Both the position numbers and the translations under genes were made by a program. A DNA stretch of 56,664 bases, filler included, from Perkinsus olseni (lineage: Eukaryota), in assembly GCA_013115125.1 (NCBI GenBank). It is 2 parts of 2 records of this genome, joined end to end, with 100 filler letters (N's around TTAATTAATTAA, not from the genome) between each part and the next. Parts side by side here need not be neighbours in the genome. Positions count along the whole stretch, not along the records: positions 1 to 28,283 come from JABANN010000451.1; 1 more part is not named here. The stretch is one strand, 5' to 3'. The first letter of the stretch is position 1. Every line of letters starts with the position of its first letter. The notes beneath the pieces were generated by a model. It searched no databases and had not been told where the DNA came from. It was given only the letters and a program-made list of their open reading frames with translations. Positions 5,677-49,692 of this stretch are shown here, one piece after another.

Positions 5677-8600
5677 TTACTCGCCGCTACCACCTTTGGC
5701 GAACTGCTGCTCGTACATCTGCAGGAGCTGAACGAAAGCAGTACCTACGTAGTGTTGCCAGAGAGGGGATGTCACCTGTTCGCTGGTAGTGGCATCTTCA
5801 GGCTTCTTATCGTCCCTTGTTCTAATGAATCTCGGGAAACGAAGACCCACACCCTTTCCTCCAGCGCCATCAATCAGGTTTGATGCTGAGAGGACCAGAA
5901 TGGTCACGTACTCAACTACGGTTTGATCCTCAACAAACAGGGTGAAAGAGAATTATTCTGTTAAATCCACTTTCTGACGCGAGTCATACGGTGTTTCAAT
6001 CGGCGGCGTCGAAGGTCCAGCGAGGGACCCAGTTCAACGACGAAGCGAGCATCTTCGAGCATCCATCGACCATGTGCGCTTAGCCGTGCGCCCAGAACTG
6101 GGGGGAAGAACCTCTTGTCGCCCACCACGCGACGGAGACCCCGTATGCGGCGTAAGCTTTCCGTCAGATTGACGATCTCTCAATGGAAGACCTATCAGTC
6201 ACCCTGTCTCGCTCCCCTACCTCCGGTATGGACGGGGCTGATGCTCAAGTCAGCGCACTGTATCTCCCAAACCTGTAGTAAACAGTAAATGCTACTGTCC
6301 CTGGCCCCCCTACTACCTGAGTCGCATCGAGCCACACGTCAGGCGTCATCTTATCAGTAACGACGTAATCGGCCCTCTTCCGAGGGATAACCTAACAAGG
6401 AGGGTAGGGCACTTTCCCAGCTCTTCCCAATTTACGTTATCTTTATGATGATCGTAATGCTTGTCCAAGAACTCATCCGTGAACCCAGTAGCGACTTTAC
6501 AGCAGCTCTGATATTCTCCTTCGTTCGGATCGTAAACGGCAAGTAGATAGGTACCATACACACCAGTACGCTGAAGGAAGGGACAAGACTTTATTATGAA
6601 CACTGGAAAGTGTGGTATCAATTGCCCAGAGGGACACTTTCATCATGGTATCAATACGCTACTCAGAGAGGAGGATATTTTTGCAACAGATTTATCATCG
6701 TAATGATGCAAGGATCGTCTCCATGACTCATGGACCATGAGTACTCCTCCTACCTTGCCCTTCCCGTAGAATGCTCCGATCGGGACGAGATCGAGAGAAT
6801 CGGCCATACCGCTGAGGTAGTCCTTCTTCAACTTGAGCCAGTTCAAGGACCTCTTCGAAGGCTCGTAGGTGGCATTCTCGAAAAGTGTCTTCAACATCAA
6901 TCCTGCCATGAACAATCCACTGGAAATTACTTATTCCCTCTCCAACCTTCACAGGAGGCTTCAACACTCTCGGTGAAGAAGGCCTGGATCTCCTCCTCAG
7001 AGTCCATGTCCCGGGCGGTAGCGAACTGAATTCTATCGGGAATCTCCTTCAGCCTTCTTCGTAGAACCTGACCGACACTCGATTTCTGACCCCCGCTAAA
7101 CGACCTCATCGGTATCATACCATCTTCAACTTTAGATTCCACTGCTCGGGTGCATTGCAACTTACGACGTGACGGGAAGCAGCTCAAAAAGTCCAACCAT
7201 ACGCTCTTCTAAATTTCCTATGATTTTTCAATTAATAATAAGCAGAGATACAAAAGATATGCACATGAGGTTCCCGACCGCGCCACATCATTACCAAGCT
7301 AGTGAATATCAATATGCGCACACTGCTACCAAGAGCGACAATTGCACGCGATGAATTAGATAATTTGCCCTCGACGAAACCCCGACATTTCAGTACCATC
7401 TCATACCCGAATACTCCCGAAAGCTCGGCCCCCACGGTTTGCAATCATCGCAGTTTCCACCCCAGCCTCACCTTCCGTCGGGTATCGAGGTTCTTTGTAA
7501 TCATCGACTCCCCGTCCAAGTATATCAGATCAAATGGAAAAAGACAAACTTGAACCTGAGAGGTAATATCTTGCGAACTTGCTATCACTTGCAGTTCCTT
7601 AACGTACCTTAATCTCCGACATAACAACATTCTTCCGTGGTCTTGACGATAGGAGTTGGAAGGGGAGAACTTTGTGTTTCTCTCTGTCGAAAGCCACAGC
7701 CTCGGAATCGATGATCATACTCTTGATTGGCTGCGAAAGAAGTGGTATGATCCTATTAATAATGGAATGCCGATTCTACGACTGGACTGTTCTTCACGTG
7801 TCAGCGCCTCTCCGTTGAAATGTAAGTCGAGCCTTTATGTATTCATGTTTCACGAAAAAGACGGTACGAGTATCATAAGTTATAGTAAACATTCCTCACG
7901 CTGGAATAGTGCTGATCCTCAGAAGAAAAGCAAATCCCCCGCACCAATCTTCGAGTCATTAAAATTATTTACTGAGGAGTTACTGTAGCTCGTAGGTCAT
8001 TAAGCCCGGCAGTTGACCTACATGCCAGCAAACGTCTCCGGCTGCTCCGAGATAATAAGTATTCTTCCCTTCCCTCATTTAAACGGCTCCAGAGAAATAA
8101 CAGCCGAAGCAAAGTCGTTTTTCGCACCAATTAACCGCGAGGAATTTCGAGCCTCCAACAACCAGAAGGTTTGAACGGCCGGCCAGAATCTTAATTTCTA
8201 TGACTTGCCAGGGTGAGCTCACCTTATCAATAACAGATATCATCTCCTCGATAGCATCAACAACATCGGGGTATCTAACGATCTGTGTCACCCCAGCTTC
8301 AACCTCCTCATCCTACTTCTCCGTCAGATCTTCACTATTCCTGCTATACACTCTTATTTCCCTTTTACCCGCCTCGGTCGTCCACAGATGAACCTGCGCC
8401 CTTTCACCATCATACCTGAAAACGCCCAGATCATGATCACAACACTCACGACCTCAATACACTCAAAAGATAGCATCAATAACGATTACTATTCAGCCGG
8501 CCGAGAGGACCGCGGGGGGGGTCGAGTTTAAAAAGATACCAATTCTACCGATACCAATAGGACGCCCTTCCCTCAGCTCACTTATATTCAGCCGTGAATT

Positions 8601-11600
8601 TGATATTCTTGAAACGGTCAAGCACCTAAGATTCTCCAAATCGATCGATCGATCGATTGGCGCCCCCTACCTCCGTTATCGATTTAGTGGGTTTTGCCAG
8701 CATTGGTTTTACTGGTATCCCGGGAGTAACACTGCATGCCTGAGATAATAACGTACATTATGTCACAATCTTCGACGAGGTGGAAAGAGTCAATCTTTGC
8801 AACCCTCCTGTGTCCAAACGAACGGTAGTAAAACTTATCCTCATCAAAGCTGGTCGGAGACAAGGATGCCACCACAGATGATGTACTTGGCAATTTAGGT
8901 CGGATAAGAAGATAATGTGAAGATCGAAGGATTTTAACCTCGCAAGTGAAGAGATATTTTTACATGAAAACAGGAGTGTAGCAAAACGCCGCATCGGACG
9001 ACGGTATCCTCCAGAAAGAACTTCGCTCCGCCTTTTTTGTTTTCTTCGTCCATCCGCCCCTCTACCCACCTTAGAGAGCTCCGCTGCATCTGCACCCGAC
9101 AGGAGGCAGTCAACAAGCTTATCATAACTTGGCACTTCACAGAACGCCTAAGACGTACAACGAAATCGATAATTTCGTGGCGCGTGACGCTGACGGGTGG
9201 TTGGGTTCACCTGTTTGGTCGCAGCCTCGAGCTCGATCATTTTTAATGCTATCTTATCAGCACTGGGCGCTGGCTTCTCTGACATGTACTGAATCTTGCA
9301 AGCATCAACCTTGGATACTTACCTTTGCGTATATCGGGAATGCATTCCTTCTCTTTACCCTTGGCCGGCTCGGTGAGAACGAATGCGTACGCCAAGGCTT
9401 GAAGAATAGTAGCTGATAGTATCCCAACTCGAAGACGGCCCTGAACGACCACAACGTATCTTACCAGTTTCGACCTAAGATACCCACCTGCAACGTCCTC
9501 ACAATGTACTTCGCCTCCTCCCCCTTGGCTGCCACCAAACACTTCGTTATGATATCTTTTCTCAATTTCTGTGAATCCTACCATCCCATACACAAAAAAT
9601 CTTCGCGGTGCGCGATGACGAAAGATACCTTTCCCCTGGCCTGGCTCATGACGAGTAGTTCCTTATATAATTTACTCAACGTCAGGGGAGGAGGGGCGAA
9701 CAGCATCGGCTGATTCACCCTCGATAGCAACGCAGCCTCGCCAAGGTCCTGATCATCATTTCGTGGCGCGCGAAAAAAAGAAAACAGCAACACCCTCGTG
9801 CGGGATCGAGACCCTGTCTGTAACGATGACTAAACTAGACCGCTACCATGCCTAGACCGCAAGCTTGAATTCTTCCAAAGCCATGCTTGAAATCTCCCCC
9901 TCTTCCTCAAGGTAACCAGCACGAGAAGTCTCGTACTATCGAGGAGTCACTCTTAAAAAGACAAAACTTCTCTAGGAGACTATTCGCTTTTTACTCACAG
10001 TTAGCGAGACAATGTCACAACTGGCTCAAACCAGTAATAACGAAACTACAGCGATACTACCGATACCAAAACCCCTTCCTGGGAGGTCGTAATAATCATC
10101 CTGCATGGACTCATTCCTAGGGCTCAATCCTTTCCCACTACCATAGCGCCCGATGTCGCCCGAACTCACCGCAGCATTGCCGTTACTGATATCAGCCGTG
10201 ATGTGTTTCTCTGATCGACCATACACCTGTGCCATCGCCTTTAGGATTACGTGATCACCAACGCCAACCTGAGTGATGATACTGGTATTATTATTCTGAC
10301 ACCTCTAGCTATTACTTCAACATTCTCATAATCCGGTCTGAGTTTATTAATGAGGAGGTAGACCGCGTGGATGAGTTCTGAAGGGTTGTGGTAGATGATG
10401 GTACGGAAAAGGTTAGCAAGAATAACCTGAAGAAGATCCCTTCGTAGTGGACAGAATAAAAATATCTTAGGTTGAAGCGCGCATCCTGCAGATTATCGAA
10501 GATTCAACAGGCCGTGCACACCCAGGCAGTCAGTCCCCATCTCAGAAATGAAATCGTGTACGACCTCTAAATTCACGAAGACGGCGGAGCGAAGCTTTTT
10601 CACACTTGAAAGAGATATCAAAAGGGGCTTTGCCTGCTAGGTGCAGCCGGCCGATGGAAAGACACCTCCGAGCCGATTGAATTTCGTGGCGCGCGACGCT
10701 CGCTCACCAGAACCTTCTTCTTCGACCCTTGCCCAGAGTTCTTCAAGTCCTCTATTTTCTGCAAGGCCAAAGCGAGTAGGGCGTAGGGGAGGTTCTTGCT
10801 TGGTGTGAGCTGAGAAAAAAAGCGCCCTCGCCGGGATTCGAACCTGCGACCTCTCAACTCACCTTAATCTGACTGAACTTGGAGGGATCGAAAGCCGGTG
10901 AGGTGATGTCACTGATTGCTGTTGGGCTCTTTGCTAAGAAAAAAATAGAGCCTCGCGAGATTTCATTTTTTCGGCAATAATAAACTTTTCTGTTTCTTCC
11001 TCACTTTTCGCTGGTATATCGCGGTTTCCAGGATACTTCGCGTTACCATGTCATTGCAAATCTTCTCAAGAATTACAAAAATATTCCTCAACTTCAAGTT
11101 ACTCTGGGGATTCAAGAGTTGAGCTCAAGTTCGAGTCGACATTAACGTTCTGGAGCGCCAGGCACGTTTGCCAGTGTTTGCCCCGATTCGTAACACCATC
11201 GTTAAGCGTCATCACTACAATCAGCATAGTCAGTGCAAGCGGGAAACTCTCTCAACATTCCTCACCTGCAGCCCCAGAAACCTTCCAGATCGACGAGGGG
11301 CCTGAGAAAGAGTATCAGAGTAAGCTAGCCTCCACAAGCTCACCTGTTCCCTTGGCGATTTGGGCTAACTTCTCTGCATCACTCTTGCCCGGCTGCTTCA
11401 AGGCTTCAGCGAGAGGGATTGCTCTGATGATTACAGAGAAGGATGGTTCGAACCCCCGGCGTGTTCGACAATCCGCGAAAAAAAATTTTCTCCAAAAATA
11501 CGATAACAATCCATAGACGATGAAGGGTTGGAAAATTAACGGAGTGAAGGGAAATAATTATGCATAATTGACACATTGACAGGGGAAATTTTTTTTCGGA

Positions 11601-11968
11601 TTCGGAAAATTGAGAAATCCATTCCACCCTCCTCCGTTACTCGTCATCATCATCCTCATAGTCGTCATCCACTTCCTCATTATCCGAATTTTTCTCTTCA
11701 ACAGGCTGAAATGAAATCGCTCCGGCCAAGCAGGAAAGTTAAACCTTACTTCATCGACTGGTGGCTGCTTATCATCCACTTGGTCATCTTGCATATCTTG
11801 CTTTTCCTCGACCTTCTCGATTTTCCTCTTCTTCTCCACAGGTTCCTCTTCTTTGCCCTTATTGGGCGAATTGGCCGCTCGCTTCGCTCCGCTCATCATC
11901 ATCGAAAATGCATTGACGGCCGAGGACATGTTCTCAGTCGACGAGGATGACGACGACGATGACGACAT
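5677..11968 (-). CDS. LIG1: DNA ligase I (ATP-dependent), multi-exon
   Basis: Basic/acidic N-terminal tail with NLS-like KKRK. Adenylation motif [12 protein letters not shown] is split by an intron. Also [52 protein letters not shown] and [13 protein letters not shown]. Confidence 0.96.
10815..10851 (-). promoter_or_regulatory. orphan Pol III B-box / tRNA-3'-end-like element within a LIG1 intron
   Basis: GGTCGCAGGTTCGAATCCCGGCGAGGGCGC followed by T7. It has an exact GGTTCGAATCC B-box but no A-box or 5' tRNA half. Confidence 0.6.
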
Positions 11969-13165
11969 TCAGAATCAAGTGAGCTAGTCACCGAACAGTG
12001 ATTACCGCAGGGGTTGACAAATCCGTAGCAAAATTTGAAAATATGGTCACCTCACTCCCCTTAGCGGTCCAGGCGTCCGACTGGAAAACGAAATGGTGGA
12101 TAATACCTTTCTCAACGCATCGCTCCGCCTAGTGCCTCCCATTCACGCATCTCCATCACACCGAGAATTTTATCTTGAACAATGAGCATCACAGAATGCG
12201 CTATAAGAGAACGAGCATAATTTTCATCACGAACGACCACCCGAGGATAACGAAGCCAACCCCTGGTCGGAGCTTCCTGTGACCTGTACCCGGCCCTTAA
12301 TAGAAGAGAAGCGCCTTCCCAGCAGGGCAGGAAACACTCCCCTCATTCTCCCTATAGATTACCAACTTAAAGACACCCCAGTGGTATCTAAGTGATAATC
12401 CCATGACTAGCACGCACTTGCCTTAAATGAAACTGAAGAAATACCACACAGTACGGTTATAATAATAGAAGAACATGAATCGCTTCGCTCCGCCCAAATT
12501 ATCTTCTCACAAACTCAACACCAAGCTCACCTACAACAAACCAAACCTTCATCGTACGAGGAATATCGTGGCGCAGCGACATTGAAGTTCATGAGAACGA
12601 ACAGATCTCAAACTAGCCGAAGGAAGATCTTTTCAACAAAGAGACTCCTTTTCGGTCGAACGACGAAGGAAAAATAGCCGACTGAATCTTCCGCAACCGG
12701 CACGCCGGGGCCAGGTCCACAAAATGGTGAATAAGAACACGCACGATGCGAACTGAAGATTGGCTGGGCGAAGTAAATGGCTGGGATGACCTGGACGCTG
12801 ATCTCTTATGAAGTTCAATGTGACGTAACATAGTTAGAGAACAATACTGGACCTAAACCCCCATACAAAACTATAGAAAATACCATAGTTTTTTGGTTTC
12901 TCTGGTACTACAGCGACTCAGACTGTGAGATTTCATGTGGGGGCTACGATTTATTAAGAAACAAAAACACATCAGAATCAAGTAAATACGCGCGCCCTGG
13001 TGAAATTTCTGAATCGGTCAATTTTCCCGCGCTTTCAAGAGATAATTCTCCGCTACTTTATCATGCTCTTCGGCTGTAACTACTTGTACGACTAGTGTAT
13101 GATACCTATGGTCTGGTCATTTACCAATCAATTTACCACAATCATCTACCAGTCATCAGTCCACA

Positions 13166-13291
13166 AATATTTACCACTCCTTTACAGTCAAATTCCTTCA
13201 CGACTAAATTACCAATATTTTTCCACTCCTTTACAGTCAAATTCCTTCACGACTAAATTACCAATATTTTACCACTCCTTTACAGTCAAAT
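13166..13291. repeat. 49-bp tandem repeat, about 2.5 copies
   Basis: CCACTCCTTTACAGTCAAAT recurs at 13174, 13223 and 13272. Confidence 0.9.
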
Positions 13292-13312
13292 AACTTCACT
13301 CTACCATCGATC

Positions 13313-13369
13313 ACCACTACATTACCAATACTTTAGTAGAATTTACTAGAATATTGGTAATGTAGTGGT
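13313..13369. repeat. long inverted repeat / hairpin
   Basis: ACCACTACATTACCAATA (13313-13330) is the exact reverse complement of 13352-13369. The inner 21 nt are also nearly self-complementary. Confidence 0.9.
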
Positions 13370-14467
13370 AGCTACTGTACCTCGTTGTACTAAGTAGAAT
13401 TATTCTAGGCTGCATACTACTACAATCACTTTATCTTCAGCCATCCCCAGAAGACTCATCCACCAAGCCCGCTGGCAGTTGATGGCCTAGAGGGTATCAA
13501 TGACATATTTGCGGGAAGGGTGTGGTACTAGATTGATGTAGAGATGGAGTAGCAGAAGGCATCAGGGAGCACTAGGCCCTGAGAGGTATTACGGTTACCT
13601 CTACAAGAGGCGACAGGCCGATGTCCGATACCACAACAACCGTAACTGCAGCCGAAAGAAACGAAGCCTCACCATGCGGCCCAACCGAAATTCAACCAAA
13701 ATTAGCATCACGACAGCCTTCCCGCTCACGCAGCCACCAAGTACCATCTACCACTAGTGCCGCAGTACTGGTGATGTCCTTAAACCAGTAGCACCTACGA
13801 GCTCGGATACTGACCGAGCCTTACCCGAGCATGATTGGCAAGCACCAGTCAACCCCACTATGCGGTAAAAGGGAGACAACTGTCGTTTGAAGCGCTCTAG
13901 CGTGGGAATGAGCGCGATGGTTACACCGAAGTGTCGTCAGAGGTACCATAGAGTATGGGATGAGAATGCATTCTGGGAAGGAGCGATGAGAGAACACCGA
14001 GGTAACCTCGGTGGTCTCTCATCGCTTCCTCGCCAACCTCGAGGTTGTACGAACCAAGGACTCAAATCAGGCGGGAGATCAGCACGCGTGCACATAAGTG
14101 ACGCCAAGGGCATGGCGGCTGATGCTTCATAAAGGCTTTTCGAGCGATGGACTGGAATGATGTTACTTATAACAGACTGGTGGTTGGTGGGTCTTGATTC
14201 CGACGCCAATGGACGAGGGATGATCTCTGTGAACTCGGGCATCTCCCCAGATTCAGGGCATCACTTTAGTTGCGTTGTCCCTATTTCCGCCGCTGATTGC
14301 ACGCACACGCATAGAGCAGTTTACTCTACCATTAGTTCACTATCATTAGCTATGGGTCTACACAGTTGCACGCATGCGTTCAGACTTCCTGGCCCACTAT
14401 TTGCCCCTTTGTTGCAATCAACGCCGGCTCTTACTGCACCCACCTTAATTGCAGTTGTTTCCTGCGA

Positions 14468-14842
14468 ATGCTTCCCTCAGCCTTCCTCCTCGTCGTCGTC
14501 GCTGTGAGCTGCCTTGCCGTTGTTGGTGGTGAGCAAGAGGTGCGAGGCTTCTACGCCTCCGACCACACCGGGCCTATCAAGTCTTTCGACTTCAATCCCG
14601 ACCGCAGTACGGTCATTCTGTCGCTCGGACCGGACACGGATGAGACCATGGAGGCACCATACACCCAATACAAGGATCTCGTCACAATCTCCCTGAGCAA
14701 CAAGCACCTCGGAACCTTGAAAGAGCTCGCTTCACATAAGGTTGATGATGATACTTTTACAAGGTTATCCGTCGTGTCAAACGTGAACTCTATCATTATT
14801 ACCTATAAGGATGGAGAGGTGACACTTTATAGCGGAAGTTAG
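14468..14842 (+). CDS. small secreted hypothetical protein (124 aa, single exon)
   Basis: ATG 14468, hydrophobic signal peptide MLPSAFLLVVVAVSCLAVVGG, uninterrupted frame with a beta-rich mature region. No family recognised. Confidence 0.75.
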   Translation: MLPSAFLLVVVAVSCLAVVGGEQEVRGFYASDHTGPIKSFDFNPDRSTVILSLGPDTDETMEAPYTQYKDLVTISLSNKHLGTLKELASHKVDDDTFTRLSVVSNVNSIIITYKDGEVTLYSGS

Positions 14843-15947
14843 CTTCAGCCTAGGATACGATGAGTGAAGTGGTTGTTTCCGGGCTTCTGATGATGGGCTA
14901 CTACTACCCCTGTTGTAGTAGAAGGCTTTGCAGTGCAAGCGACCCCACCTGCTACTCATCGTAAGAATACTATTATCGTTTGTTTCCATGTTCGTTTTCG
15001 CTCATCCATTCGGTAACTTGGCTAAGTTTGCGCGTAGTGATGAGAACAAAGTGAATAGTGCCAGTAGAAGGAATATTAAAGTAGAGTATCTTGAGGTCAA
15101 CTTTGTCGCAAACTATAGCACCAATACCTATTCATTCAACAACAGTTCGTTATTGTCAGCTCCCTTGATGTGCTCTGTGTTAAACGAGAGTGGAAGTCTG
15201 GAATCCACTGGGGAATCGATCAGCGTTCGCTTGTTGAAAGAAGAAACCCCTGACGGAGAATCTTCAAGTCGAGCGTAGAGGACGCGAGAAGAAAGATATT
15301 CTCGCCTGAACAACCATGGGAGAATTCTTCGGTCCGCGAATAAACTCACATTCTTGATTGAAGTGATAGAAATTAAATTGAAAAAATGAGTAGGAAGCGG
15401 CGATGATTGTACCCCGTGGTGATTGCACAGAGAAAGCGGTCATTGCGGCCGAGGGTTGCCCATTCCTGACCACAATTATCAAGGTTGTTGTCTACGATTA
15501 GGAGGACTAGCGTGCCTTAGAGTAAGGAAGTTCTCCTCTGTTTGGAACTGATGAACCCAATGAACATACCTAGGAGGGTCGTTACCATTCGGTCATGGTG
15601 AGTTCAGTGCTGTGTCGTCAATGGTAAATTTGCGAAACAGCAGATAAACGTAGTCACCATTGGTGATTACCGATTGCTGGTCGGACTACCGGCTACAATA
15701 TCAGCCGAGCGATGATAAGAAGTGTTTGCTCTGCATCGGATTTAGTAAGACCCTTGAGCCCTTCTTCTCTTCAGTGAAGAAGAAGGCTCTGCTACGAAGG
15801 CTGCCTTGAAGGGAATGACAATTAGGAGCCAGCGACGTGACGGCACTGAAGAGTCGAAATGACAATCTAGTTAGCAAGCTCAGTACTTCTTTTTTACAGA
15901 GGAGACCATCGGTCCAACTCATTTTCGTCGCCTGAAATGAGGGCTCA

Positions 15948-15974
15948 GGTTCGAATCCCAGGGGATGCATTTTT
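15948..15974 (+). promoter_or_regulatory. orphan B-box followed by T5, about 120 bp upstream of the RPS10 start
   Basis: GGTTCGAATCCCAGGGGATGCATTTTT. No cloverleaf 5' half was found. Confidence 0.5.
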
Positions 15975-16071
15975 CCAAAAAATATTTATCGATCACGCTG
16001 CGGGCGAGCTCTATCTTCCTTCGCCTACCCTTCGCAAAGGCCCATACCACCACCTAAGTCTTGCCCTAATT

Positions 16072-16583
16072 ATGGTGCTAATCAGAAAGGAAGATCGCCG
16101 TACTGTCTACGAACATCTCTTCAAGGAGGGTGTCATCGTCGTCGAGAAGAAGCCCACTTTGAAGCACCATCGTCAGATGGAAGTTGCCAACCTTCACGTT
16201 CTCATGATCATGAAGTCTCTTTCTTCCAAGTAGTAGTATCATCATCAGAGACCTCCGTTCAATTATTGTTGTTGTTTAACTCAGGGATCTCGTCGACGAG
16301 AAGTTCAACTGGCAGTGGCACTACTACACCCTCAATGATGATGGCATCGAGTACCTCCGTCAGTACCTCCATCTTCCTGTAATAAGGGTGTCTTGACAAA
16401 TTCGCTGAGAAACGACCTTGTTGTTTTTCTTATCATCAGGCCACCGCTTTTCCCGATACCATGACCAAGCAGCGCCCTACCCGCGCCATTGGTGGTGATG
16501 ACGAGGAGCGCAAGCCCCGTCGTGACTGGGGTGGCAACAAGTGGGGTCAGCAGCAGCAGCAGCAGAAGCCCGTGGAGGCCTAA
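16072..16583 (+). CDS. RPS10: 40S ribosomal protein eS10, 3 exons
   Basis: MVLIRKEDRRTVYEHLFKEGV...NLHVLMIMKSLSSK|DLVDEKFNWQWHYYTLNDDGIEYLRQYLHLP|ATAFPDT. Introns at 16230-16284 and 16379-16439. Confidence 0.96.
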
Positions 16584-17455
16584 GTGGTTCAATATTATTA
16601 AGGGCATCTACGCTTAGGATGATGAGAAAGGCTTTTGGTTGACGCCATTGTATAATATTGTTGAGTTTAGCGATAATTTACACTGGGGAGTGCTCAACGC
16701 AAAGAGAGGCTTTCCGACTGGTGATTCCTTTGGGTCCTGCTGAACACGAAAAGGGGAAGGAGAATATTGACTACTGACACTGCTATGAAAAGGAAAGTAT
16801 CGTATGTTACGAAAGGAGCGGTATGATTAGTCTGTTGCATAAACTCTTTCTCCATAGTTTCCTGCTAATCGACTACTACTACATCTACACACGTTCAACG
16901 TTTGCTGAACAAATTCAGTTTGATAACTTGACTTCCTTCGCCATCTTCAGATGAGAAATAACAAAGGCTTGAATTATGGTAGTACTGCGACGTTGATGTC
17001 GTTGTTAACCTAAAAACAGGTAATACTAACATACACAAGGCGAAAGTCAGCTCACCGTTTTCAACCATCACCAGTTCAATGAGATACTTTACCATCATTG
17101 TAAGGTCTGAGAAGAGACATGCGTTTACCTACACGTATGCCAGTAGAAGTTTTAGAGAAGTACGTCGAGATCGCCCGAGTATCTGTAAAGTCGCACGCCC
17201 ACGATTACGAAACGGCTGACAGCCAGAAGATACTAATTCAATACCGAAGAAACTTTTTGCCCAACTGCCGAAAATTCATGTCCGACAAAGTAGAGTGCTA
17301 AGGCCTGAATGGAACGATTTGTTATCTGTAAGAGGTTTGGGAAGAAACCCTCCAACGATAGCGTTGTATCTCCCTATTATTGCTCAGTATCACCAACGAA
17401 GCTGATGATTACTCTCATAATTCAACGACTACGTTCAGCAATGGATGGCCCTCCA

Positions 17456-18873
17456 TCATCTACCGGTGACAGTCGAAATTCTAATCAGCAGTCCATGCTG
17501 TTGGTGGGTGATTATTATGATGCCACAGATTTGACATTATGTTCTCATTGCGTAACAAGAGTGGCTCTAGTCCTCGCTCGATCGACCAGGTGAGGGCTCA
17601 CCTTCTGGTGGTGTAGAATCTGCGGTCGAGGTCTGTGGCATAGAGATCCAGCATGATCTCGGAGCTCTCTTCGGCTACAGAGAACGCCAAAGATTCTTCA
17701 CTCAAGATACTTCCCAATGAATAATACAAATACGTCTGAGAAGATACGCCTGCGCGAGAATCTTCCGGCTGCGCGAAATGATATTACCAGTTGACGTTGG
17801 ATATCTTGGACGGACGGAGAGGTCTTTAGTATGCACGTTTTGACAGAAGTCCTGGGAAGGAGGCCACGAATGATTCCACTACTAGGGCTTATTATGTCCC
17901 CGGGTTGATTTCCAATGAAGAGCACCTGAGGTCCCCGATTCAAATCCTGGCACTGAGAGGCACTGAATCTTACCTGTGATGATGACCCTTCGCTTCGAGG
18001 CAGCTGGGAGTACTGTACCACTGACTCACTATTCTCACAGCCGAGGCCTCCTTCTGCCTGAAACGACAAGTCCCTTCCCTTCCTGTCCCCAATCATGGCT
18101 CACTTGAGTCCTCTCGCCAAGTGCCGCTTCGGCACGTGAACTACTTGCATTTCGTCCAAGAGAGGCAGTACCCGAGGGAGGTAGAGCGCACAGCTCTCTC
18201 GAACCCAGCCCTAAAGAGTAGCTAGAGGTGTCAGAAAGAGCGGGCAAGAGTGACTACCTCTGTACTGGAACTGAGGACGTAAACGTTGCCCTTGGTGAGG
18301 TGCAGTAGAAGGGTAAGGAAGGCCTCAACGACGGAGGTATACACGTTAGAGAGGGTTAACTAACAAGTACAGTCATTCCGGGGCTGGTCATTGCTCATCG
18401 GGCGGTGGTACGAAGACCGGACTAGGTATTCGAGCGACATGCTATCACTACCACTACAGTGAGTTATATCCGTCAAGGGACGTGGGCGCCTCGAGTGCCG
18501 GTAAATTGATGCCATTGCCCTCTCTTCGTTACATCTCTCCCAACGCGCCTACCGCTACTACCAATACAGTGAGCGCTCATGTCCATCAAACGACGTGAAT
18601 TTATGCCGTTGCTACTACTACTACTTTTCCTCCCTGGTCGATAAGGACCTTGGTGGGGACGATAGTATCATCCCAGTCAAGAATGACCATACACTGCTCC
18701 ACCTCCTGCCTTCTGACGTCGTTGCCGTTGTAGTAGTACTCTTGGGAGTCGCTACTAGTTGGCGTGGAGCAGCAGTAGGAGGAGGAGGCTGCTGTCGGGT
18801 GGCAGCTGTTGGTTGGTGATGAGGTGTCTTTAACCAGAATGGTAGTAGTAGAGGGAGTTATGGTAGAGAACAT
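17456..18873 (-). CDS. HAD-superfamily hydrolase-like protein (DWDDT type), multi-exon
   Basis: Exon peptides ILDWDDTIVPT (HAD motif I), GNVYVLSSSTE|GWVRESCAL and VLFIGNQPGD...VKTCILKTSPSVQDIQRQL. Their order and spacing match the protist DWDDT HAD-like family. The 3' end is uncertain. Confidence 0.7.
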
Positions 18874-21851
18874 CTTCAAAAGTCTTATTACCAAAAGAAG
18901 AAGGATACTACAACTACTCACAATAATATCTTCGACTTATTACGTCGGATGTGTGCTTCAACCTAAGATACTCCACTGCTGACTCGAGATCGGTGAGCGG
19001 GAAATGTGACCCCACCCGGGATCGAACCTGCGACTTGCAGATAGGCGGTGGTAGTCCCAATGAAGTCACTCTTCAGATGGATCTCCGGCAGGTTGCTTCT
19101 AAGCGATATCCGCACGATGGAACCTTCTAACTCGCGCACCTCCGTAGTTAGCCCGTCCACAGTACCTATTCTTGGCCAGTGCTCGGTTTGTCTGTCTGTT
19201 TGCTTGGTTAAGGCCATTGATTAACGTTTCACCTTTGCTTCGTAAAATCTACTGTCAGACCGTCTGACTCAGACGTGTATAATTCCGCCCGGAGATATAT
19301 CCGCTCTCCTGAAAGTCAGACCCGCAGTGTTCCATTTCATGGAAAGGAAACTCGTTTCGCTCCGCTCGCTGCGTCTGCGTGCGATGAGCCCTAGAACTCA
19401 CAATAAGCTTCATAGCTTTCGTCACATCAGCACTTGTTGAGTGCGTAGTCCACCACGAGTCTACCAAGGCTTTCCTACAAACGGAACACTGTAGACTTGC
19501 CCACTCTACTGAGTAACGGTATCGGCTGGCTGATCGACATCTCCGGCCTCCCTTCACCGCTGCCTTCGGTATCTGCTCGTCGACCTGTCCAGCAGTAGTA
19601 CCATCTTTTTCACAACTCATGTCATTTGGTCGGGCTAGCCGCGACACAGTATACATCCCAGATGGGATCTCCGTCAGAACTTGGAAAGTAACCTTCCTCG
19701 CCGTCATTACCATCTATCGTTGAATTCAGGATACCAAAGGGACCAAAGAAGACGGTTCTGAAGGTGAGGGAGGGCTTGGTGAACCTAGCAGGAGTTCTCG
19801 GGACTAGTTCCCACTACTAGTTCTCCAGTCGGGGTACCAGTGGTACCGTACCACCTAGACTGGAGGTCTCACTGGGTTCAGATGCTCCCGTTTTGTTGAC
19901 TCTCAGTAATGCTACCACAGAATGATGTATTGAATATAATAACTACACTGGCTCGAGGGTGCACTGGGGTTGGAACATTGGGAGAATATTGGGCCAACAG
20001 GGATACTAGGGAGAGGGCTGCTGCTTTGCTCTTGCTTAGCACTCGAATTCCGTTTGGAGTGGTATCGTTCCATCTGCGCTTGATCCTGATAAAAAAGGCT
20101 TTTTATGCGGTTTTTCGGTTGGTCAATTTCCGGAGAATGTTACTCATAATGAACGACCAATGCCAAACTCGCACCCAAATTTTTATCAGTTGCATGCATC
20201 AACATAAGATACGCCATTCCAGGCTCTCGCAAAGCGTCCTTGCCGAAGTACCAACCCCCTGAGAAGACTTTTAGACGGACGAGTCATGTCGAGCGAATGT
20301 ATCACGAGCCCCTCCGACTATCGAAGGATACCATCGAACTGAGTGATACACTCTCGGAAAAGTAGTACTCGTCGGTCGGAACGTGGATGGGTGCCATCAC
20401 CTGTTAGATTTTAATGTTTCGGATATCTTGTTGGCCACTTGGGGTTGGTCTCTTTTCTGATGGAAATCTTCCCTTACTTTGATGGTTAGTTTACTTATTT
20501 ATCTGCCAGGCACGCTACCCCCGGTGAAGGGGAGAGCAGCAGCAGGAAAATACGGTCTTGTTATTCAAGACAGGTTGGTAGTCTCTCAATGCTGCTTGTG
20601 AGGATGAGCGTTTGGTAGGATGATGGTTCGGTGGCATCTAAGGGCAAGATAGGTGGTGAAGGCAGCTCGTTGTTGGACGAGGACATGGCAAGGGAAGCTA
20701 GAACACAAGCTAGGAAGGTAGAAGCGGTGATCCAGAGGGGTTACAGAATGACATTCTTGCGTAGACTAGGGGCTGTAGTGTAAGATGGATCGTAGATGCT
20801 CTTCAACTGGATTGGGGAAAAGTGCCCACGAGACTGGCCGCCCATTTTAATGCCGCAATATCCCGATAGACAGGTTTTTCTCACGGGAGCAGCTCGATTG
20901 CGTGTGATGATTCTTCTTTCGGTTTAATTTTTTACCTGCGCTAGGGTATCGAAATTTTAAACTGATTACCATCATCTGAAGGTTTGGGACGTTTCCAGTG
21001 TCGTTACCCTAGCGAGGTGTTTGGGCCGAAGACTCGACGTTCATGGGCATGCACGTCTGTGGTCGCTATAGCTTTCGGCTGTTCCGGTTTCGGGATACCT
21101 TCTCACGAAACTCCGCTACCAATAAATCATAAAATTCGGCGTTTTCTTTAATAAAAGAGTACCGGTAATCAGCGAGCGGCTACTCTCTCCGTTAACGCTG
21201 TCATGTCGCTGATCAGTGTTCCCTCCTGAGGAGTGGATCGATTGTAATCTTGATATCAGGGTTATGCTTTTGCCAAGCAAGCCAACATGCTGGGCACGGT
21301 AGGAGAGGTGGCCTTTGGAGTTCTTCGTGCCAACGCCGAGGATGACGTCATGGGAGCATGACTGAGTGTCGATCGAACTCTGCATCTTGCGTTGAGGGGG
21401 AAGAAGACACACGGAGACGGCCATATTCTGACAGGAGGAAATTCGACGCTCAGCGAGTGAACCTTCCCTTTGTTGCTCTGATTGTGTTATTGTCCGTCGG
21501 GAGGCTCTCGCAGATCGTCCCAAGCTGCCTTGCCTCCCACTGGGGCATCCGATATGATAGGGTCTCGCGGATTTGGACGCTTTGTTCATGAACATGGAAA
21601 TATGACCGCTCGAAGATCGATCTTGCACGATTTCGAGCGCTCGAAAGTCCTTTCCGATTGGCGATTTCCTCCGTGCGCAATTTGATGTGGTAGCATAAAA
21701 TTGGTGGACTGCCAGCTGCTTGACACAGTGCTGTGGTGAGAGGGTGGTAGTCGCGAGAATGCCAATTCTACTTCGAGTAGTTATTTTCTTAGTCGGGAAA
21801 CTCGAGTAAAGGCAGGAGTCCTGTCTCAGTAACGTCGCAGTCATCGCTGTC

Positions 21852-22547
21852 ATGCTTCTCACTGTTCACACGCTCACATCATCAATTCTGTTGATCCTGC
21901 TGAACACGGACGTGGTGACGGGTGCCTTCCTCAGGGGAGGGCATCACCCCGCCCTGCTACCCTTCATGATGATGATGATGCCTCCCCTCCGAGGTGGGAT
22001 GGGCAGTTCGGTCGTGTGCTCAGGAGTCCTCTCAGGAACGCTTGTATGAAGATGGACGTGAAATCATTCTGAGCTACGACAACCCGTGGCTGACGAGCTG
22101 CCATATTCTTTACAACACGACCGAACCCTCGTACGAAGTGACTCTGAAGGAGGAGTGGATGACAGACGGGCACCCCGAGGATAATTACCTGGCTATTGGA
22201 ACGAAGCTCACTACGGATCCGATTCGGGACGCCTGATTGATTTGATATACTTGTAAAAGCGCTCAGGTGGTGGCTTTGTAGTCCATCATTGTTTCAGCTC
22301 GTATAAGTCTGGCAAGTTCGAGGTTTTGGTCGGACCAGTGGATGAGTTAGGGCACTACAAGTCTTATAGTGGAGAAGAAGAAGAAGCGCTCCACCGACAG
22401 CTGGGTGATGTGAACCCTTTCTATCATTTATTGAAGGATATAAAGAAAAACTTCAAGATAAGGAATGCAAGAAGATCGCTGAGTACATTGAAGGCCACCC
22501 AGCTGACGAGTATGAAGAGGGGAAGGAGTGGTTGCCTAAGTTTATGA
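21852..22547 (+). CDS. hypothetical protein with N-terminal signal peptide, probably 3 exons
   Basis: Hydrophobic start MLLTVHTLTSSILLILLNTD is followed by coding-like frames at about 22024-22200 and 22268-22547. Exact junctions were not resolved. Confidence 0.5.
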
Positions 22548-23474
22548 TGGAGAAAACGATCAGGGCCACAGAATGAACTCCTCATGTCGATCCACCTTGT
22601 TGTTGTTGATGTAATCATGTTTATCCGAAGTATGGGTGTTGTGGTTAGTATGATGTCCAATGGTTATGTTTGTGTCACTCCTGCGGTCCAGGGCTATTAG
22701 CGAATCCTCATGCCTGTCAGGAGGAGGAGAGCGGCGGCGGTGGCGGGTTGGTGGTCTCGTTATATATCAGAGTCAGGATTTAGGATGGATGAATAGTGAT
22801 AGAGTACAATGATGCTGCTGCCAGGGGAATATGTAAAACTGTAGCAACGGCCAAGGGACAGTTGAGGTTCATCGGAGTTGGCTTCGGCTTACGACTAGAT
22901 AGCTGAAAGATCAGGATGAGTCACCGCTGGAGGCTGCGCATCCTCTGGAGGAGTGGTGGTAGTAGTAGCGGCAGCATCAACATGCTCTCTTAAAAGTACT
23001 GCTGTGGAACTAGTGTTTGGTCTCTGCCTCCCCAGTCTGATGTCAGGTCGCACTACGTGGTAGTAGTCGTACGTTGATGAAGTATCGTGAGTAGAGGAGG
23101 ATGGAATGAAGGGAACTTCTTGGCCTCATCGGTCGGGTTATACGGTAGATTCTACCGGGTAGAAGCGAAACTACCCATCCCGTAACTTTCTCACGCCTGA
23201 TCGCGGGATGTTACCAAGGTGTTGATAAACGACGCCCGTCATGATGGAGAGCGGCGAGCCACGGGGGTGCTGCTGCGGGTTGGTTGAGATCATGACGGCT
23301 CTCGGAGAATAGAAACCGTACTGTGCGATGTATGGTATTTATTAACAGGGTCAACCTCTCTCCACGGTAGCTGCCACGAACGTATCAAAGACTGAGTGTT
23401 GATCGAATTCTTCATCTTGCGTTGAGGGGGATGGGTGGTATCGCGTTGGGTAGGTCCAGGGGATTTAGTCCAGC

Positions 23475-27376
<3,902 letters not shown>

Positions 27377-28283: not shown

Positions 28284-28383
28284 NNNNNNNNNNNNNNNNN
28301 NNNNNNNNNNNNNNNNNNNNNNNNNNNTTAATTAATTAANNNNNNNNNNNNNNNNNNNNNNNNNNNNNNNNNNNNNNNNNNNN
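28284..28383. other. assembly gap with artificial six-frame-stop linker
   Basis: 44 N + TTAATTAATTAA (28328-28339) + 44 N = exactly 100 nt. Contiguity across it is not established. Confidence 0.97.
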
Positions 28384-38307: not shown

Positions 38308-39879
38308 ATGAGCAGGTTACTCACTCCTTGCAGGCAAACACTCCGGGCGGCGGCGAGGACGGCGAAAAAGACGATCGAATTGTTGCAGCAGCAGCAGAGC
38401 CGCGTCGCGACTCGTTAAGTAACAGTAAGTCAAGTTTGATAGGAATTAGAGGACAGTGGAAGCGGTCGTGGAAGTGCTCTCGTCAAGCTTCCTCTTCTTA
38501 GCTTCGCTCAGCTCTCTGACAACACATAGCCCGCCCGATAGAGATGACGGAGGGAAGCCCATTGGCCTACTTCTCAGTAGCCGCTATGTCCTTCTTCAGA
38601 GACTGTACAAGGACCTTGGCATCCTCGAACCTGAAGCAGTGATGGCTGCTGACGGATGGCGGCCGGCGCTCGGAGTCCCTACTGCTTTTTCAAAGCCACT
38701 AGCTTCTGTTTACAGGAATTCCTCCGCGAGACCAAGCGAGCCAGCTTCTTAGTCAGGACCCTACACACAAGTAAGCGTGGCGTCCGCGTTGAATGGACTG
38801 AATCGCTCGACCCCCTACTCTATCTCGTTTGGCTCCTCCCTCACAGGGGCCAGTATCTGAGCCAATCAGTCGCCAGAGGCGGATACCGCAGGAAGACCTA
38901 CGCATCTGAAGGTGGCGTCGCCGTTGAACTCAGCCCCTGCTCCCGCAGGATCACAGCGGACCTTCCAGTTACTATGCCGAAGGAAGAGCTCAGGATGGCC
39001 GACGGGGCTGATCACGTCTGAGGGGTCGTATCACCAGCGGGGACGGGTTAGGTCGACTCACATGTGTCTTGGCACTCGGAAGACCACACTCTCTCCCTCA
39101 ACAAGAACTTCGAGGCTGCAGAGGCCAACTGACCCTCGTCCGTAGTGACCCAGACGCTGCCTTCCGATGGCTCGCATGCCACGAAGGAACCTGCAGGGAC
39201 GAGGAAGCTCTGGGGACACGGTCGTCGCCGGCGGCTTAGTCAGCCTCATGTGCTGGCAACGCGCGTCGGTAGTGGCAACGCAGAGACCTTCGTTACGGTA
39301 ACGATGAGTTCAGTGATGCGTTATTGAGTACGCCCGAACCCTGCCACGACTAGCAGAAGGGAAAGACCGGACGATCTTATTCCCTCCACGAGCAGAGCGT
39401 ATCAAGAAAGCCTCGGGATACTCCACCTGGCTGGTCAACTCGCTCGAGCATAACCAAGCAAGTAGTGCCGTTTGGTACTCTAGCTGGGGTCGCAACGGCC
39501 AACGACGACGAGGAGGCATCCAGCTCGTCTGAGAAGGGCACCTCGCAGGGAGGCCATCACTCACTAGGAGTTCCAAGGCTTACGAATGTACAGGTTCCAC
39601 TGCGTCCCCCTCTTCCTCAGCACGATATCGCCTCGGTCATTCACGCGCCACGAGGACCTGGATGCGCTCTTTGAGAGCAACCACAACACTCGAGTAGCCC
39701 TACCCGATCTCGTTGGTGCATTCAATAGTGTACGGGCCATCACGCAGGCCGAAGTCCTCTCCAACTTGACCAAGGAGGCCAGCCTCCAGCCTCTCGCGAC
39801 GCCGTTTGTTCGACGAGCTGCGCTGGGCAGATTCAGACGACCGGGAGCCGCGAGAGGAAACCGAGCGACGACTGGCTGA
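38308..39879 (+). CDS. hypothetical multi-exon protein with mitochondrial-presequence-like N-terminus
   Basis: Arg/Ala/Thr-rich, acid-free start MSRLLTPCRQTLRAAARTAKK. Frame-compatible GT-AG junctions include QDPTHK|GQYLSQ. The terminal frame ends at 39879. Confidence 0.5.
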
Positions 39880-42112: not shown

Positions 42113-45112
<3,000 letters not shown>

Positions 45113-48046: not shown

Positions 48047-49692
48047 TCAGCGGTAGAGACTCTTTTTTATCCATAGAGCACCGGGCCTTCCATTGCCATC
48101 CACCCCTACGAGTATTTGACTCACGATGTAAGGAGCGGTCATGGACAGCCGATGTAGGATGGACTGAAAGAATGAGGTGGCCATGATGAACAATAAGCTA
48201 CTGCGCCCGCCGGGAGTCGAACCCGGGTCACAAGCATGGGAAGCTTGTATGATACCGTTACACTACGAGCGCCGTTGAGATTACAATGCCTCTAACTACC
48301 AAATGCTGGACGAAATCTATTCCTATGACACCACAATAACAATGCCAACCAACTTTACAAAGACTGCGCCCGCCGGGAGTCGAACCCGGGTCACAAGCAT
48401 GGGAAGCTTATATGATACCGTTACACTACGAGCGCTGCTGAACTAATCGTATTTCAACTCGCCCCATGGTGGGAGAGAGGCAGCGGATACGCACCTCCTT
48501 GACGGCTTCAAATAGCACTCCTCCTTTACGTTGATGGCCTTCAGGTACGTGAGTTCCCACGCCAGTCACCACCCAGACCGAAAGGCATGGATGCCGCCAA
48601 AGCGCGAAGTCCAGGGCCTGACATTTCGGAAATGGGAGTCTCGCTGACTACGCTGATTGGCGCAACATTTACCACTGCGTGGTACTACACATCGCTATTC
48701 GAGCGCAACCGATGGAGACCATTGGTCCATCGAAAGGACATTCCAGACTGAGACGTAGCGACCTCAGACTAGTCATCGAGGCGAACCGATACATCGAAGG
48801 AGAAGCGCGTTGAGCTTTTCCGTAGGTGAAACAACAGCCGGAGAGTTTTCTCCCTAATATCGACGGACTCGGGAGCGCGCGCCTTCTCACGCGTTTCAGC
48901 GTCTGCATGCTGAGGAATTCGCCATCTCAGTCGGCTCTCATGGAACCTCAAGTTGGCTTGAGGTTCAGATTTTTTGATAACCGAGGTCTAGCGAGAGGTA
49001 GTTGGATCCTCGCGTGCCTGGTGAGCCATGGGCGTCCAGTCACGGGGGAACCGACCACCTTGCAGTCGCCGCCGGCCACAGGTCCGGAGAACAAGTGTTG
49101 CATGAAAATGCGGTACCAACGGCCCTCACGCCGTTGTCAGGAACGGCGTAACTTTTTCAACCGATACTACAAAGTCTAGAGCCTCCTCAACGCTCTTCAG
49201 TGATTGGAAGTGCAAGTCGATAACAATATCCCCTTCTTGTCCCAACGGCAGTGGTCTGTCCGCGTTAACGTACTTGAACCTCTCTACCTGACCAACAATC
49301 CACACCGTTCGTCCCTTCTCCCCACCATTCATTTATCAGCGCGTCTATTCTACACATACTCGAGACTGGAAAGCGTGGGCCCAAATGAGCGAAGACGCTC
49401 GAAGAACAGTGACAGGCCACCTTTCTCACCGGGTCCTGTATCGAGAACGCCGCATCAGCCGCTCCATCCTCGTGGTTCCTCCACACCCCGTCCGGAATCT
49501 TAACGGTGTCCAACTGAACCTCCACCCAATTGCCCTCCCCTGGAGCATGGTGAGAGGCATATGTCGGCCCATTAGCATACACCTAAACAAGCAACAGGGA
49601 TAACCTCAACCATCGTCCGTAGCTGCGGCCTAGGCAGCCAAGAGCTGCGAGGCTCCACCGCCCTACCGTCTTTCCTGGACCACCGCCTTCCC

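Follow-up and report, generated by a model that had tools for sequence, protein, structure and literature searches.

Relics of tRNA-derived SINEs and of tRNA pseudogenes are found in introns of protein-coding genes. Such relics place a tRNA-type B-box/T-arm block in the non-coding DNA of a Pol II gene, where it is non-functional as a tRNA, and this is also the situation in intron 5 of the DNA ligase I (LIG1) gene of Perkinsus olseni, a parasite of shellfish. In contrast to SINEs, this intron holds a 3′ part only and has no A-box region, SINE body or tail. A tRNA-derived SINE comprises a head with A box and B box, a body, a tail and flanking duplications. Intron 5 does not have this architecture, and no target-site duplication was seen at its ends. 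The literature searched contained no description of a SINE from Perkinsus.

A further comparison is offered by the same genus. According to an extract from PMC3706591, five tRNA genes account for more than 500 copies in Perkinsus marinus, and the families named there are Ile, Leu, Gly and Tyr. Debris of tRNA genes is therefore expected in the genus. The extract also describes the Dada transposons of P. marinus, which target tRNA genes, insert in the A-box region and leave long 3′ parts. Hundreds of tRNA copies together with tRNA-cutting elements, as described in that text, are a plausible source of debris. Unlike the Dada sites, intron 5 revealed neither a transposon end nor a target duplication.

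Introners of Amoebophrya, as far as they are covered by an extract from PMC7789003, are short introns in a related alveolate lineage that derive from repeated sequence and have inverted repeats near the splice sites. Intron 5 resembles them in these respects. However, introners are recognised by many near-identical introns, and intron 5 had no second copy in the window, by which we mean the whole stretch of P. olseni DNA analysed here (56,664 nt). Its splice sites are canonical, and 0 of the 38 other introns mapped in the window were similar to it over its length.

According to an extract from PMC12409998, an ETC site is a locus whose (extended) B box is conserved and is bound by TFIIIC in the absence of TFIIIB and Pol III. 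Like intron 5, the ETC sites of yeasts, nematodes and mammals considered in that extract have a B-box-type motif that stands alone, with no complete Pol III gene around it, and they lie within Pol II genes or close to them. They are defined by measured TFIIIC occupancy and conserved extended B boxes, whereas the likeness of intron 5 is one of sequence.

Intron 5 of the DNA ligase I gene

Spliced mapping of an annotated P. olseni protein (P0001) gave the following features.

5680..11968, minus strand: DNA ligase I (LIG1) coding region, 26 exons and 25 GT..AG introns
10863..10933, minus strand: exon 5, 71 nt, ending in ...KFSQIK
10810..10862, minus strand: intron 5 of 25, 53 nt, GTGAGT...CTCAG
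10708..10809, minus strand: exon 6, 102 nt, kept in the Perkinsus chesapeaki protein P0011 and in more distant homologues

P0001 has 806 aa, is 100% identical and carries the source name DNA ligase [Perkinsus olseni]. It contains the Pfam domains PF04675, PF01068 and PF04679; Pfam was also run on the LIG1 exons singly. The protein mapped to 11968..5680 on the minus strand with every letter matched, and only with intron 5 taken out. On this strand the borders of the intron are ...CAGATTAAG / GTGAGT...TTTTTTTCTCAG / CTCACA..., from 10862 to 10810. The unspliced reading continues as ...SQIKVS and meets a stop after 2 codons, and the length of 53 nt is not a multiple of 3. Across the junction the protein sequence of P. 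chesapeaki P0011 is the same as in P. olseni, and transcript-derived homologues are colinear with the LIG1 protein. Intron 5 thus has the marks of a U2-type intron, namely GT..AG borders and a removal that restores the frame of a conserved protein. Judged from the genomic and protein sequences, it is a real, ordinary short spliceosomal-type intron, and its removal is needed to make DNA ligase I. The preliminary description had proposed a 53-nt intron at 10810-10862 and an in-frame join after KFSQIK. The sequence and coordinates were exactly as described there, and the join was borne out by the exact mapping of P0001.

The size of intron 5 is typical, since 14 of the 25 LIG1 introns measure 42-63 nt. 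Introns of 46-61 nt in the neighbouring genes were confirmed by RNA contigs, and an extract from PMC3101222 gives a range of 39-1622 bp for Perkinsus introns, most of them below 100 bp. Among the RNA-type contigs over 7300-27200, the best-supported 15 of 77 joints all lie outside LIG1. Translation of intron 5 was searched in read-through ORFs of other Perkinsus assemblies, and no candidates were obtained at near or shorter lengths. As a side observation, 0.60 of the sampled words of 7300-12000 were present in run X7, which is RNA by guess; this has no bearing on the intron 5 junction.

The tRNA 3′-end look-alike in intron 5

Most of the intron is taken up by three overlapping or adjoining elements.

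10822..10855, minus strand: tRNA-gene 3′-end look-alike, with GAGAG, a variable-loop-like GGTC, a T arm GCAGG-TTCGAAT-CCCGG and a 9-nt acceptor-like CGAGGGCGC
10834..10844, minus strand: B-box-type 11-mer GGTTCGAATCC, fitting the pattern GGTTCGANNCC
10815..10821, minus strand: T7 run, terminator-like and/or polypyrimidine tract, 4 nt before the 3′ AG

The tRNA-like piece starts 7 nt past the 5′ splice site and stops 4 nt short of the 3′ AG, and the decayed copy accounts for about 41 of the 53 bases. The pattern GGTTCGANNCC is what we take to be the B-box consensus. The perfect B box claimed earlier for this intron is present at 10844-10834, and on the same assumption about the consensus, intron 5 contains a B-box consensus of the kind that an ETC site would have.

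The 20-mer GGTCGCAGGTTCGAATCCCG (10851-10832) is identical to the variable loop and T arm of real bacterial tRNAs. It gave at least 136 matches in at least 119 prokaryote loci, and 117 of the 136 matches listed lie inside tRNAs called by ARAGORN. Among the matches listed, these tRNAs were Lys (61), Asn (29), Thr (14), Met (7), Arg (5) and Pro (1), and a T stem GCAGG/CCCGC with A.C at 51:63 is their natural T arm. The base following GGTCGCAGGTTCGAATCCCG in the 117 listed tRNAs is C in 103, T in 14 and G in none, and intron 5 has G. Since G is absent at this base in the listed tRNAs, intron 5 is one substitution away from a working T arm. Its T arm keeps the conserved T loop (B box), with one mismatching base at the end of the stem. 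The identity to tRNAs runs 9 nt past the B box on the 5′ side. Within the window, a 30-mer of the piece was unique at up to 3 mismatches.

The 20-mer at 10850-10831 matched at least 120 metagenome stretches that resemble multi-copy heads of tRNA-derived SINEs. Among those listed, the upstream GAGAG was common to 31 of 120 and the downstream C to 105 of 120. None of the 20 SINE-like loci tested (of the 120 listed) reached any Rfam threshold. The similarity to a SINE-head HMM was confined to the B-box block (model positions 60-110 of 158) and never extended upstream. In intron 5 an acceptor-length stretch is directly followed by a T-run, whereas only 6 of the 120 listed SINE-like copies have this arrangement.

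T7 runs close to a 3′ splice site are uncommon, though intron 5 is not the only case. Seven or more T in the last 25 nt were found in 2 of the 39 mapped introns, intron 5 and the neighbouring LIG1 intron 4, and four or more in 9 of 39. As a separate observation, a plain pyrimidine tract would predict T7 straight behind an acceptor-length stretch more often than it occurs (2/39); its rarity fits a gene-derived terminator and is silent on function. The preliminary description had read the intron as a tRNA 3′ half with a Pol III terminator. A tRNA-derived content is supported by the 20-nt T-arm identity; the terminator reading is not, because T7 can equally be the polypyrimidine tract.

Two real tRNA genes of the window served as comparators.

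48202..48272, minus strand: tRNA-Gly(CCC), found by ARAGORN, Rfam 62.3 bits
48365..48435, minus strand: tRNA-Gly(CCC), found by ARAGORN, Rfam 59.8 bits

ARAGORN (default and relaxed) and the Rfam gathering threshold gave only these two tRNAs in the window and none at intron 5, and Rfam had no tRNA match at E<=10 over the intron 5 region. Scored as a 5′-cut tRNA, the piece reached 2.8 bits, compared with 14.4 for the 3′ half of a real tRNA-Gly. Folding z-scores for the region were -0.4 to -0.9. The acceptor, D, anticodon and T arms of the RF00005 cloverleaf are not all present, and no tRNA 5′ half was found upstream of the piece. Because this half is absent, no tRNA can be made from intron 5. 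ARAGORN, Rfam and folding are in line with the earlier statement that the arm does not belong to a functional tRNA. The T stem, said there to be broken, is less so than described, as it differs in one base from the T arms of the 117 tRNAs.

Other assignments were rejected. Descent from the tRNA-Gly(CCC) of the window was the top nhmmer match, yet with E 4.4 it is unsupported. Vault RNA scored 18.2 bits (E 0.84), below the gathering score of 34, and this match was driven by the B box and the T-run. In a full tRNA or tRNA-like fold that takes its 5′ half from exon 5, CCTCACCGG of the exon and CCGGCGAGG of the intron pair at 8 of 9 positions, with a z of -0.69. As exon 5 is protein-constrained and the fold is no better than shuffles, it was rejected.

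Relatives in the window and origin of the piece

The pattern GGTTCGANNCC occurs 6 times in the window, whereas 0.42 occurrences are expected (about 14-fold), and 0 of 100 shuffles reached 6. The six matches include the two real tRNA-Gly genes and one palindromic GGTTCGAACC. In the 56 kb, 3 clear and 3 weak relatives were found, and the related pieces include the following.

9771..9814, minus strand: degenerate sibling GGGTCTCGATCCCGCACGAGGGTG with a T-rich run, in LIG1 intron 8, directly followed by the dispersed motif CGCGCGCCACGAAAT
19006..19038, minus strand: sibling GTCGCAGGTTCGATCCCGG..., E 1.3e-4 to the SINE-head HMM; 19002-19034 is 76% identical to the intron 5 piece (33 nt)
15939..15974, plus strand: sibling GAGGGCTCAGGTTCGAATCCCAGGGGATGCATTTTT, 75% complementary to the intron 5 piece over 36 nt
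43117..43136, plus strand: weaker sibling GGTCGCGGGTTCAATTCCC, flanked by two exon-like ORFs of a PLP-enzyme-like gene on the minus strand (gene model from ORFs only)
17925..17971, plus strand: weak T-arm-like stretch GAGGTCCCCGATTCAAATCCTGG, antisense filler of a 48-nt intron, confirmed by RNA, in a minus-strand gene

The degenerate sibling with a following T-rich run, noted earlier at 9791-9814, was thus recovered. Siblings GTCGCAGGTTCGATCCCGG and GAGGGCTCAGGTTCGAATCCCAGGGGATGCATTTTT lie about 75-110 nt upstream of the RNA contig ends of two genes, in the orientation of those genes. The former is about 100 nt upstream of the contig end (18909) of a minus-strand gene. The latter precedes a plus-strand gene with very high coverage, whose first covered base (16047) lies about 75 nt further downstream. 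From its position between exon-like ORFs of a minus-strand gene, GGTCGCGGGTTCAATTCCC is probably intronic and antisense. The resemblance of GAGGTCCCCGATTCAAATCCTGG could be due to chance.

Shared bases of the siblings extend outside the B box. Their acceptor-like parts differ, and therefore they are not copies of one young repeat. They grade from perfect to degenerate (9791-9814, 43117, 17925-17971) and look like a decay series rather than a conserved site. As the siblings were partly found by a search with the B-box motif, the perfection of their 11-mers is biased. A neighbouring motif, CGCGCCACGAAAT, was considered as a cell-cycle element of a replication gene. This was dropped, since the motif also occurs elsewhere and its orientation relative to the host gene varies; it is present in an AAA-ATPase gene at 25420 and 26386, the first site in an RNA-confirmed intron. 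A composite element made of the tRNA-like piece and other dispersed motifs was likewise rejected, as order and orientation were inconsistent between sites.

The 20-nt core, which matches real tRNA T arms and the B-box block of tRNA-derived SINE-like repeats in metagenome contigs without a difference, and the related pieces in the window support a tRNA-derived content of intron 5 rather than a chance look-alike. We infer descent from a Perkinsus tRNA gene or tRNA-derived repeat. Intron 5 probably carries a decayed tRNA-derived fragment that rides in an ordinary intron. The 3′ end of a tRNA gene, or a tRNA-derived repeat, would have been copied into the intron with variable loop, T arm, acceptor-length stretch and T-run. 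The piece would since have decayed with its B-box-type motif still intact, and would be one of several similar relics, some in one orientation and some in the other, that are spread over introns and upstream regions of the window. Its T-run would now stand at the place expected for the pyrimidine tract of intron 5. We infer that the piece is most likely a neutral passenger, an oddity of genome litter rather than a demonstrated regulatory device.

The extent of the piece, which fills nearly all of intron 5, would also suit an intron that was created by the fragment, an origin that the preliminary description had raised beside colonisation. In such a recent, introner-like gain, a tRNA-gene-end cassette of about 45 nt would have entered the coding sequence, either by filling a break or as a small mobile element, bringing with it the pyrimidine run and the AG. 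A weak T-arm-like stretch, in antisense, also fills a second short intron (17924-17971), and a near-inverted repeat GTGAGTTGAG / CTCAGCTCAC (10 nt, 9/10) bridges both splice sites of intron 5. In Amoebophrya, which is related, invasive introns built from repeats are known (extract from PMC7789003). However, the B-box part of the antisense stretch does not exceed chance level, and the inverted repeat is largely splice-site consensus and coding sequence. The ends of intron 5 have no target-site duplication, and no second intron in the window is alike over the whole length. The same facts are explained by an old, longer intron trimmed around an inserted fragment. We regard the creation of intron 5 by the fragment as unlikely.

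A perfect B-box 11-mer amid decayed surroundings could also reflect selection on the B box. The block would then be a TFIIIC binding site, as the preliminary description had suggested, independent of transcription and ETC-like, one of many in Perkinsus introns and upstream of Pol II genes, and such putative sites would act on chromatin or on the expression of the neighbouring gene. In intron 5 and in the two pieces upstream of genes a perfect 11-mer fits the B-box consensus as we take it to be, and neither the stems nor the acceptor-like parts beside it have been preserved. But the copies are graded from perfect to degenerate, as decay would give, the perfection of the intact ones is partly ascertainment, and the tRNA identity continues 9 nt 5′ of the B box, where a TFIIIC site does not need it. 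A selected TFIIIC site appears improbable.

A GC-rich intron that by chance holds a B-box-like word beside a pyrimidine tract would agree with the shortness of the region, the missing Rfam tRNA match, the insignificant similarity to the tRNA-Gly of the window and the T-runs near other 3′ splice sites, but is already disfavoured and highly improbable, as the 20-nt exact identity to real tRNA T arms is far beyond chance in 56 kb, the B-box pattern is enriched beyond all shuffles and the shared bases of the siblings go beyond the B box.

Meaning for Perkinsus introns

Beyond this locus, Perkinsus might possess a class of small cassettes from tRNA-gene 3′ ends (T arm, acceptor-length stub and T-run), located in introns and just upstream of genes, which would either seed short introns or serve as TFIIIC-only sites. 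We consider this decidedly unlikely. If cassettes seed introns, the T-run and the following AG would serve as the 3′ splice region of new introns, and if many short Perkinsus introns were built in this way, intron gain would have a concrete route in a lineage near the dinoflagellates. TFIIIC-only cassettes would form the first such B-box network in an alveolate, inside a replication gene. Should the B-box blocks be conserved and bound by TFIIIC, a role of Pol III factors in alveolate chromatin would follow; none was met in the literature on Perkinsus introns, tRNA, repeats, SINEs and introners and on ETC sites in general, a search not aimed at TFIIIC in alveolates. If the pieces are only debris, the result is neat but ordinary. 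Fragments of tRNA genes would litter the non-coding DNA of a genus with inflated tRNA gene numbers, and a tRNA fragment could form nearly the whole of a minimal intron without harming splicing.

Intron 5 of the DNA ligase I gene

Intron 5 of the DNA ligase I gene (LIG1) lies on the minus strand, where the sequence runs ...CAGATTAAG (exon), GTGAGTTGAGAGGTCGCAGGTTCGAATCCCGGCGAGGGCGCTTTTTTTCTCAG (intron), CTCACACC... (exon), with borders at 10863/10862 and 10810/10809. The window sequence agreed with the preliminary description in coordinates, 53-nt length and all listed motifs. A 50-aa exon translation matched P0001, the annotated 806-aa protein, with 100% identity. Its sources name P0001 a DNA ligase, and also 'tRNA ligase', of Perkinsus olseni, a perkinsid alveolate; it carries three ATP-dependent DNA ligase Pfam domains. 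A scripted walk along the minus strand, with jumps limited to GT/GC..AG, yielded P0001 without a single mismatch between 11968 and 5680, through 25 GT..AG introns, number 5 being 10862-10810. Left unspliced, this intron translates as ...SQIKVS followed by a stop. The residues across the junction are the same in P0011, the P. chesapeaki orthologue, and more distant homologues, several of them named as MMETSP transcripts, are colinear at that point, off by at most one residue. On exact protein mapping and homologue colinearity, 10862-10810 is judged to be a real intron.

A length of 53 nt falls in the normal short class, because 14 of the 25 LIG1 introns measure 42-63 nt; the other 11 measure 166-492 nt. 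Neighbouring genes have introns of 46-61 nt, plus longer ones, confirmed by RNA-type contigs (joints over 19.9 kb, best-supported 15 of 77, none of these 15 from LIG1). The accessible text of PMC3101222 gives Perkinsus introns as 39-1622 bp, mostly <100 bp. At 23452 and 14453, RNA contigs carried extra 5' letters, ...ATCTTGGCTCA and CTTGGCTCA, that agree with the Perkinsus spliced-leader end quoted in the same text, so these positions are trans-splice acceptor sites of two genes. The N run at 28284-28383, with TTAATTAATTAA in its middle and stop codons in all frames, is a linker between separate contigs.

The tRNA-like content of intron 5

At the level of sequence, a T arm is unmistakable in intron 5. 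The 20-mer GGTCGCAGGTTCGAATCCCG occurred at least 136 times in at least 119 prokaryote loci, and among the matches listed 117 of 136 copies fell within tRNAs called by ARAGORN: Lys(ttt) 61, Asn(gtt) 29, Thr(cgt) 14, Met 7, Arg 5 and Pro 1. In the 117 listed tRNAs the T stem is closed by the following base, C in 103 and T in 14; the intron has G there, which none of them has. The stem had been described as broken on account of the A.C opposition inside it, an opposition that these working tRNAs have as well; the T arm is thus one substitution from functional. On its 3' side follow CGAGGGCGC, whose nine bases match in length an acceptor strand with its discriminator and one further base, and then T7.

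By whole-gene criteria the content of intron 5 is not tRNA-like. Over the window, ARAGORN and Rfam detected only two tRNA-Gly(CCC) genes (48202-48272 and 48365-48435). Relaxed ARAGORN over 10808-10912 returned nothing, and Rfam at E<=10 over 9600-11100 gave no tRNA match. Treated as a 5'-cut fragment, the piece reached 2.8 bits against the tRNA clan, over 11 nt, compared with 14.4 bits for the 3' half of a real tRNA-Gly. Folding was no better than that of shuffled sequences, at z -0.40 for the intron alone and -0.69 when exon 5 was added. A Vault match in the Rfam search of 9600-11100, resting on the B box and the T-run, was rejected as sub-threshold (18.2 bits vs 34). The two tRNA-Gly(CCC) genes, both on the minus strand, are 163 nt apart and 96% identical over 79 nt including flanks; the pair is a local tandem duplication, consistent with the reported tRNA gene expansion in the genus.

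Among 39 mapped introns, two (LIG1 introns 4 and 5) have T>=7 within their last 25 nt and nine have T>=4, so the intron-5 run is longer than usual. This agrees with a tRNA-gene terminator having arrived along with the fragment. LIG1 intron 4 has the same T-run without any tRNA-like piece, and a plain pyrimidine tract is therefore an equally good description of its present role.

Relatives and other short repeats

The B-box pattern was found six times in the window, against 0.42 expected.

B-box pattern matches, and weaker relatives of the intron-5 piece
48202-48272 and 48365-48435, minus: the two tRNAs
LIG1 intron 2: a palindrome
10862-10810, minus: intron 5
15948, plus: resembles the intron-5 piece outside the B box too (75% over 36 nt)
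19018, minus: likeness beyond the B box, 76% over 33 nt
9791-9814, LIG1 intron 8: weaker relative, sharing TCGATCCCG.CACGAGGGTG and a T-rich run
43117-43136: weaker relative, probably intronic, antisense to a minus-strand gene
17924-17971: chance-level relative, antisense, filling an RNA-confirmed 48-nt intron

The pieces at 15948 and 19018 each lie ~75-110 nt upstream of a gene's RNA-contig end, in the orientation of that gene. The intron 8 sibling had been proposed before and is present, as a weaker relative. Acceptor-like parts differ among all siblings, which look like independent or old relics rather than a young repeat family. The short two-intron gene at 15932-16650 (plus) is very deeply covered by RNA contigs (summed depth 87,655 in run X7, RNA by guess); a loose end at 16647 carries poly(A), and a T-arm-like piece lies just upstream of the gene.

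The overlapping pattern GTCGCAGGTTCGA(N)TCCCGG, non-pairing G included, had at least 120 matches in metagenome sequence. The elements concerned are multi-copy, each copy in flanks of its own, and share a downstream body; 71 of the 120 listed have an A-box-like block 20-55 nt upstream. This layout is that of tRNA-derived SINE heads. None of 20 loci tested from the 120 reached any Rfam threshold. As in the intron, GAGAG precedes the block in 31 of the 120 listed and C follows it in 105; a T-run within 25 nt occurs in only 6. An HMM from 102 metagenome copies aligned to the intron over the B-box block only, never the A-box part. From these matches, the T-arm variant of the intron piece is one also present in other eukaryotes' tRNA-derived repeats. 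The acceptor-length stub and T-run of the piece resemble a tRNA-gene end more closely than a SINE.

Other short repeats are dispersed in the window: 11 different 12-mers had at least four dispersed copies, vs 0 in each of 20 shuffles, mostly intronic or intergenic and in either orientation. One 12-mer family, GCGGAGCGAAGC, lies at 10584, 11881 (inside LIG1 exon 1), 12482, 27201, 44698 and 54169; another, ATCTTAGGTTGA or its complement, at 10464, 18958, 25226, 37072 and 43035. The 13-mer CGCGCCACGAAAT has five exact copies, all minus: three in LIG1 introns 6, 8 and 12 (10681-10693, 9758-9770 and 9172-9184) and two in a gene for an AAA-ATPase, encoded on the opposite strand (25420-25432, inside an RNA-confirmed intron, and 26386-26398). 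Up to 2 mismatches gave six matches vs 1.2 expected, and a related 12-mer lies at 39641. At the edges of the 13-mer, DNA-run contigs from 6-7 other places in the genome part from the window sequence, and in some contigs it is repeated in tandem, the copies set apart by 8-9 nt. The 18-nt word TAGCTAGAGGTGTCAGAA or its complement occurs at 10291-10310 (47-nt LIG1 intron 7), 18220-18237 (inverted, in the RNA-confirmed 47-nt intron 18210-18256) and 44862-44888; to each side of 18220-18237, eight DNA-run contigs depart from the window sequence. This word, too, is a short repeat spread genome-wide and located within minimal introns. In LIG1 intron 10 (9441-9487, minus, 47 nt), the dispersed ATCTTAGG motif forms the basis of a perfect 8-nt hairpin, GTATCTTA ... 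TAAGATAC.

Origin and possible role

The best-supported reading is that intron 5 would be an ordinary intron nearly filled by a decayed tRNA-gene or tRNA-derived fragment. What had been seen earlier holds, and part of its interpretation, tRNA-derived content in a real intron, is supported. Such debris is expected from the accessible part of PMC3706591, which describes hundreds of copies of a few Perkinsus tRNA genes and transposons cutting them. Birth of the intron from the fragment itself, as also proposed, is a less likely possibility: intron 5 shows no target duplication and has no second copy in the window. Retention as a putative TFIIIC docking site is likewise a less likely possibility. 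The sole point in its favour is a B box intact amid decayed flanks, in intron 5 and upstream of two genes, but the way of finding the copies favours such cases. Extra TFIIIC sites are defined by occupancy in the part of PMC12409998 available.

Among partly accessible sources, a literature search found no paper on SINEs, tRNA-derived introns or introners of Perkinsus. Introns that hold a tRNA-derived relic are already known, and intron 5 adds another example. It is a tidy case, as the relic makes up almost the whole intron, and would be of wider interest only if genome-wide counts or cross-species conservation revealed a pattern.
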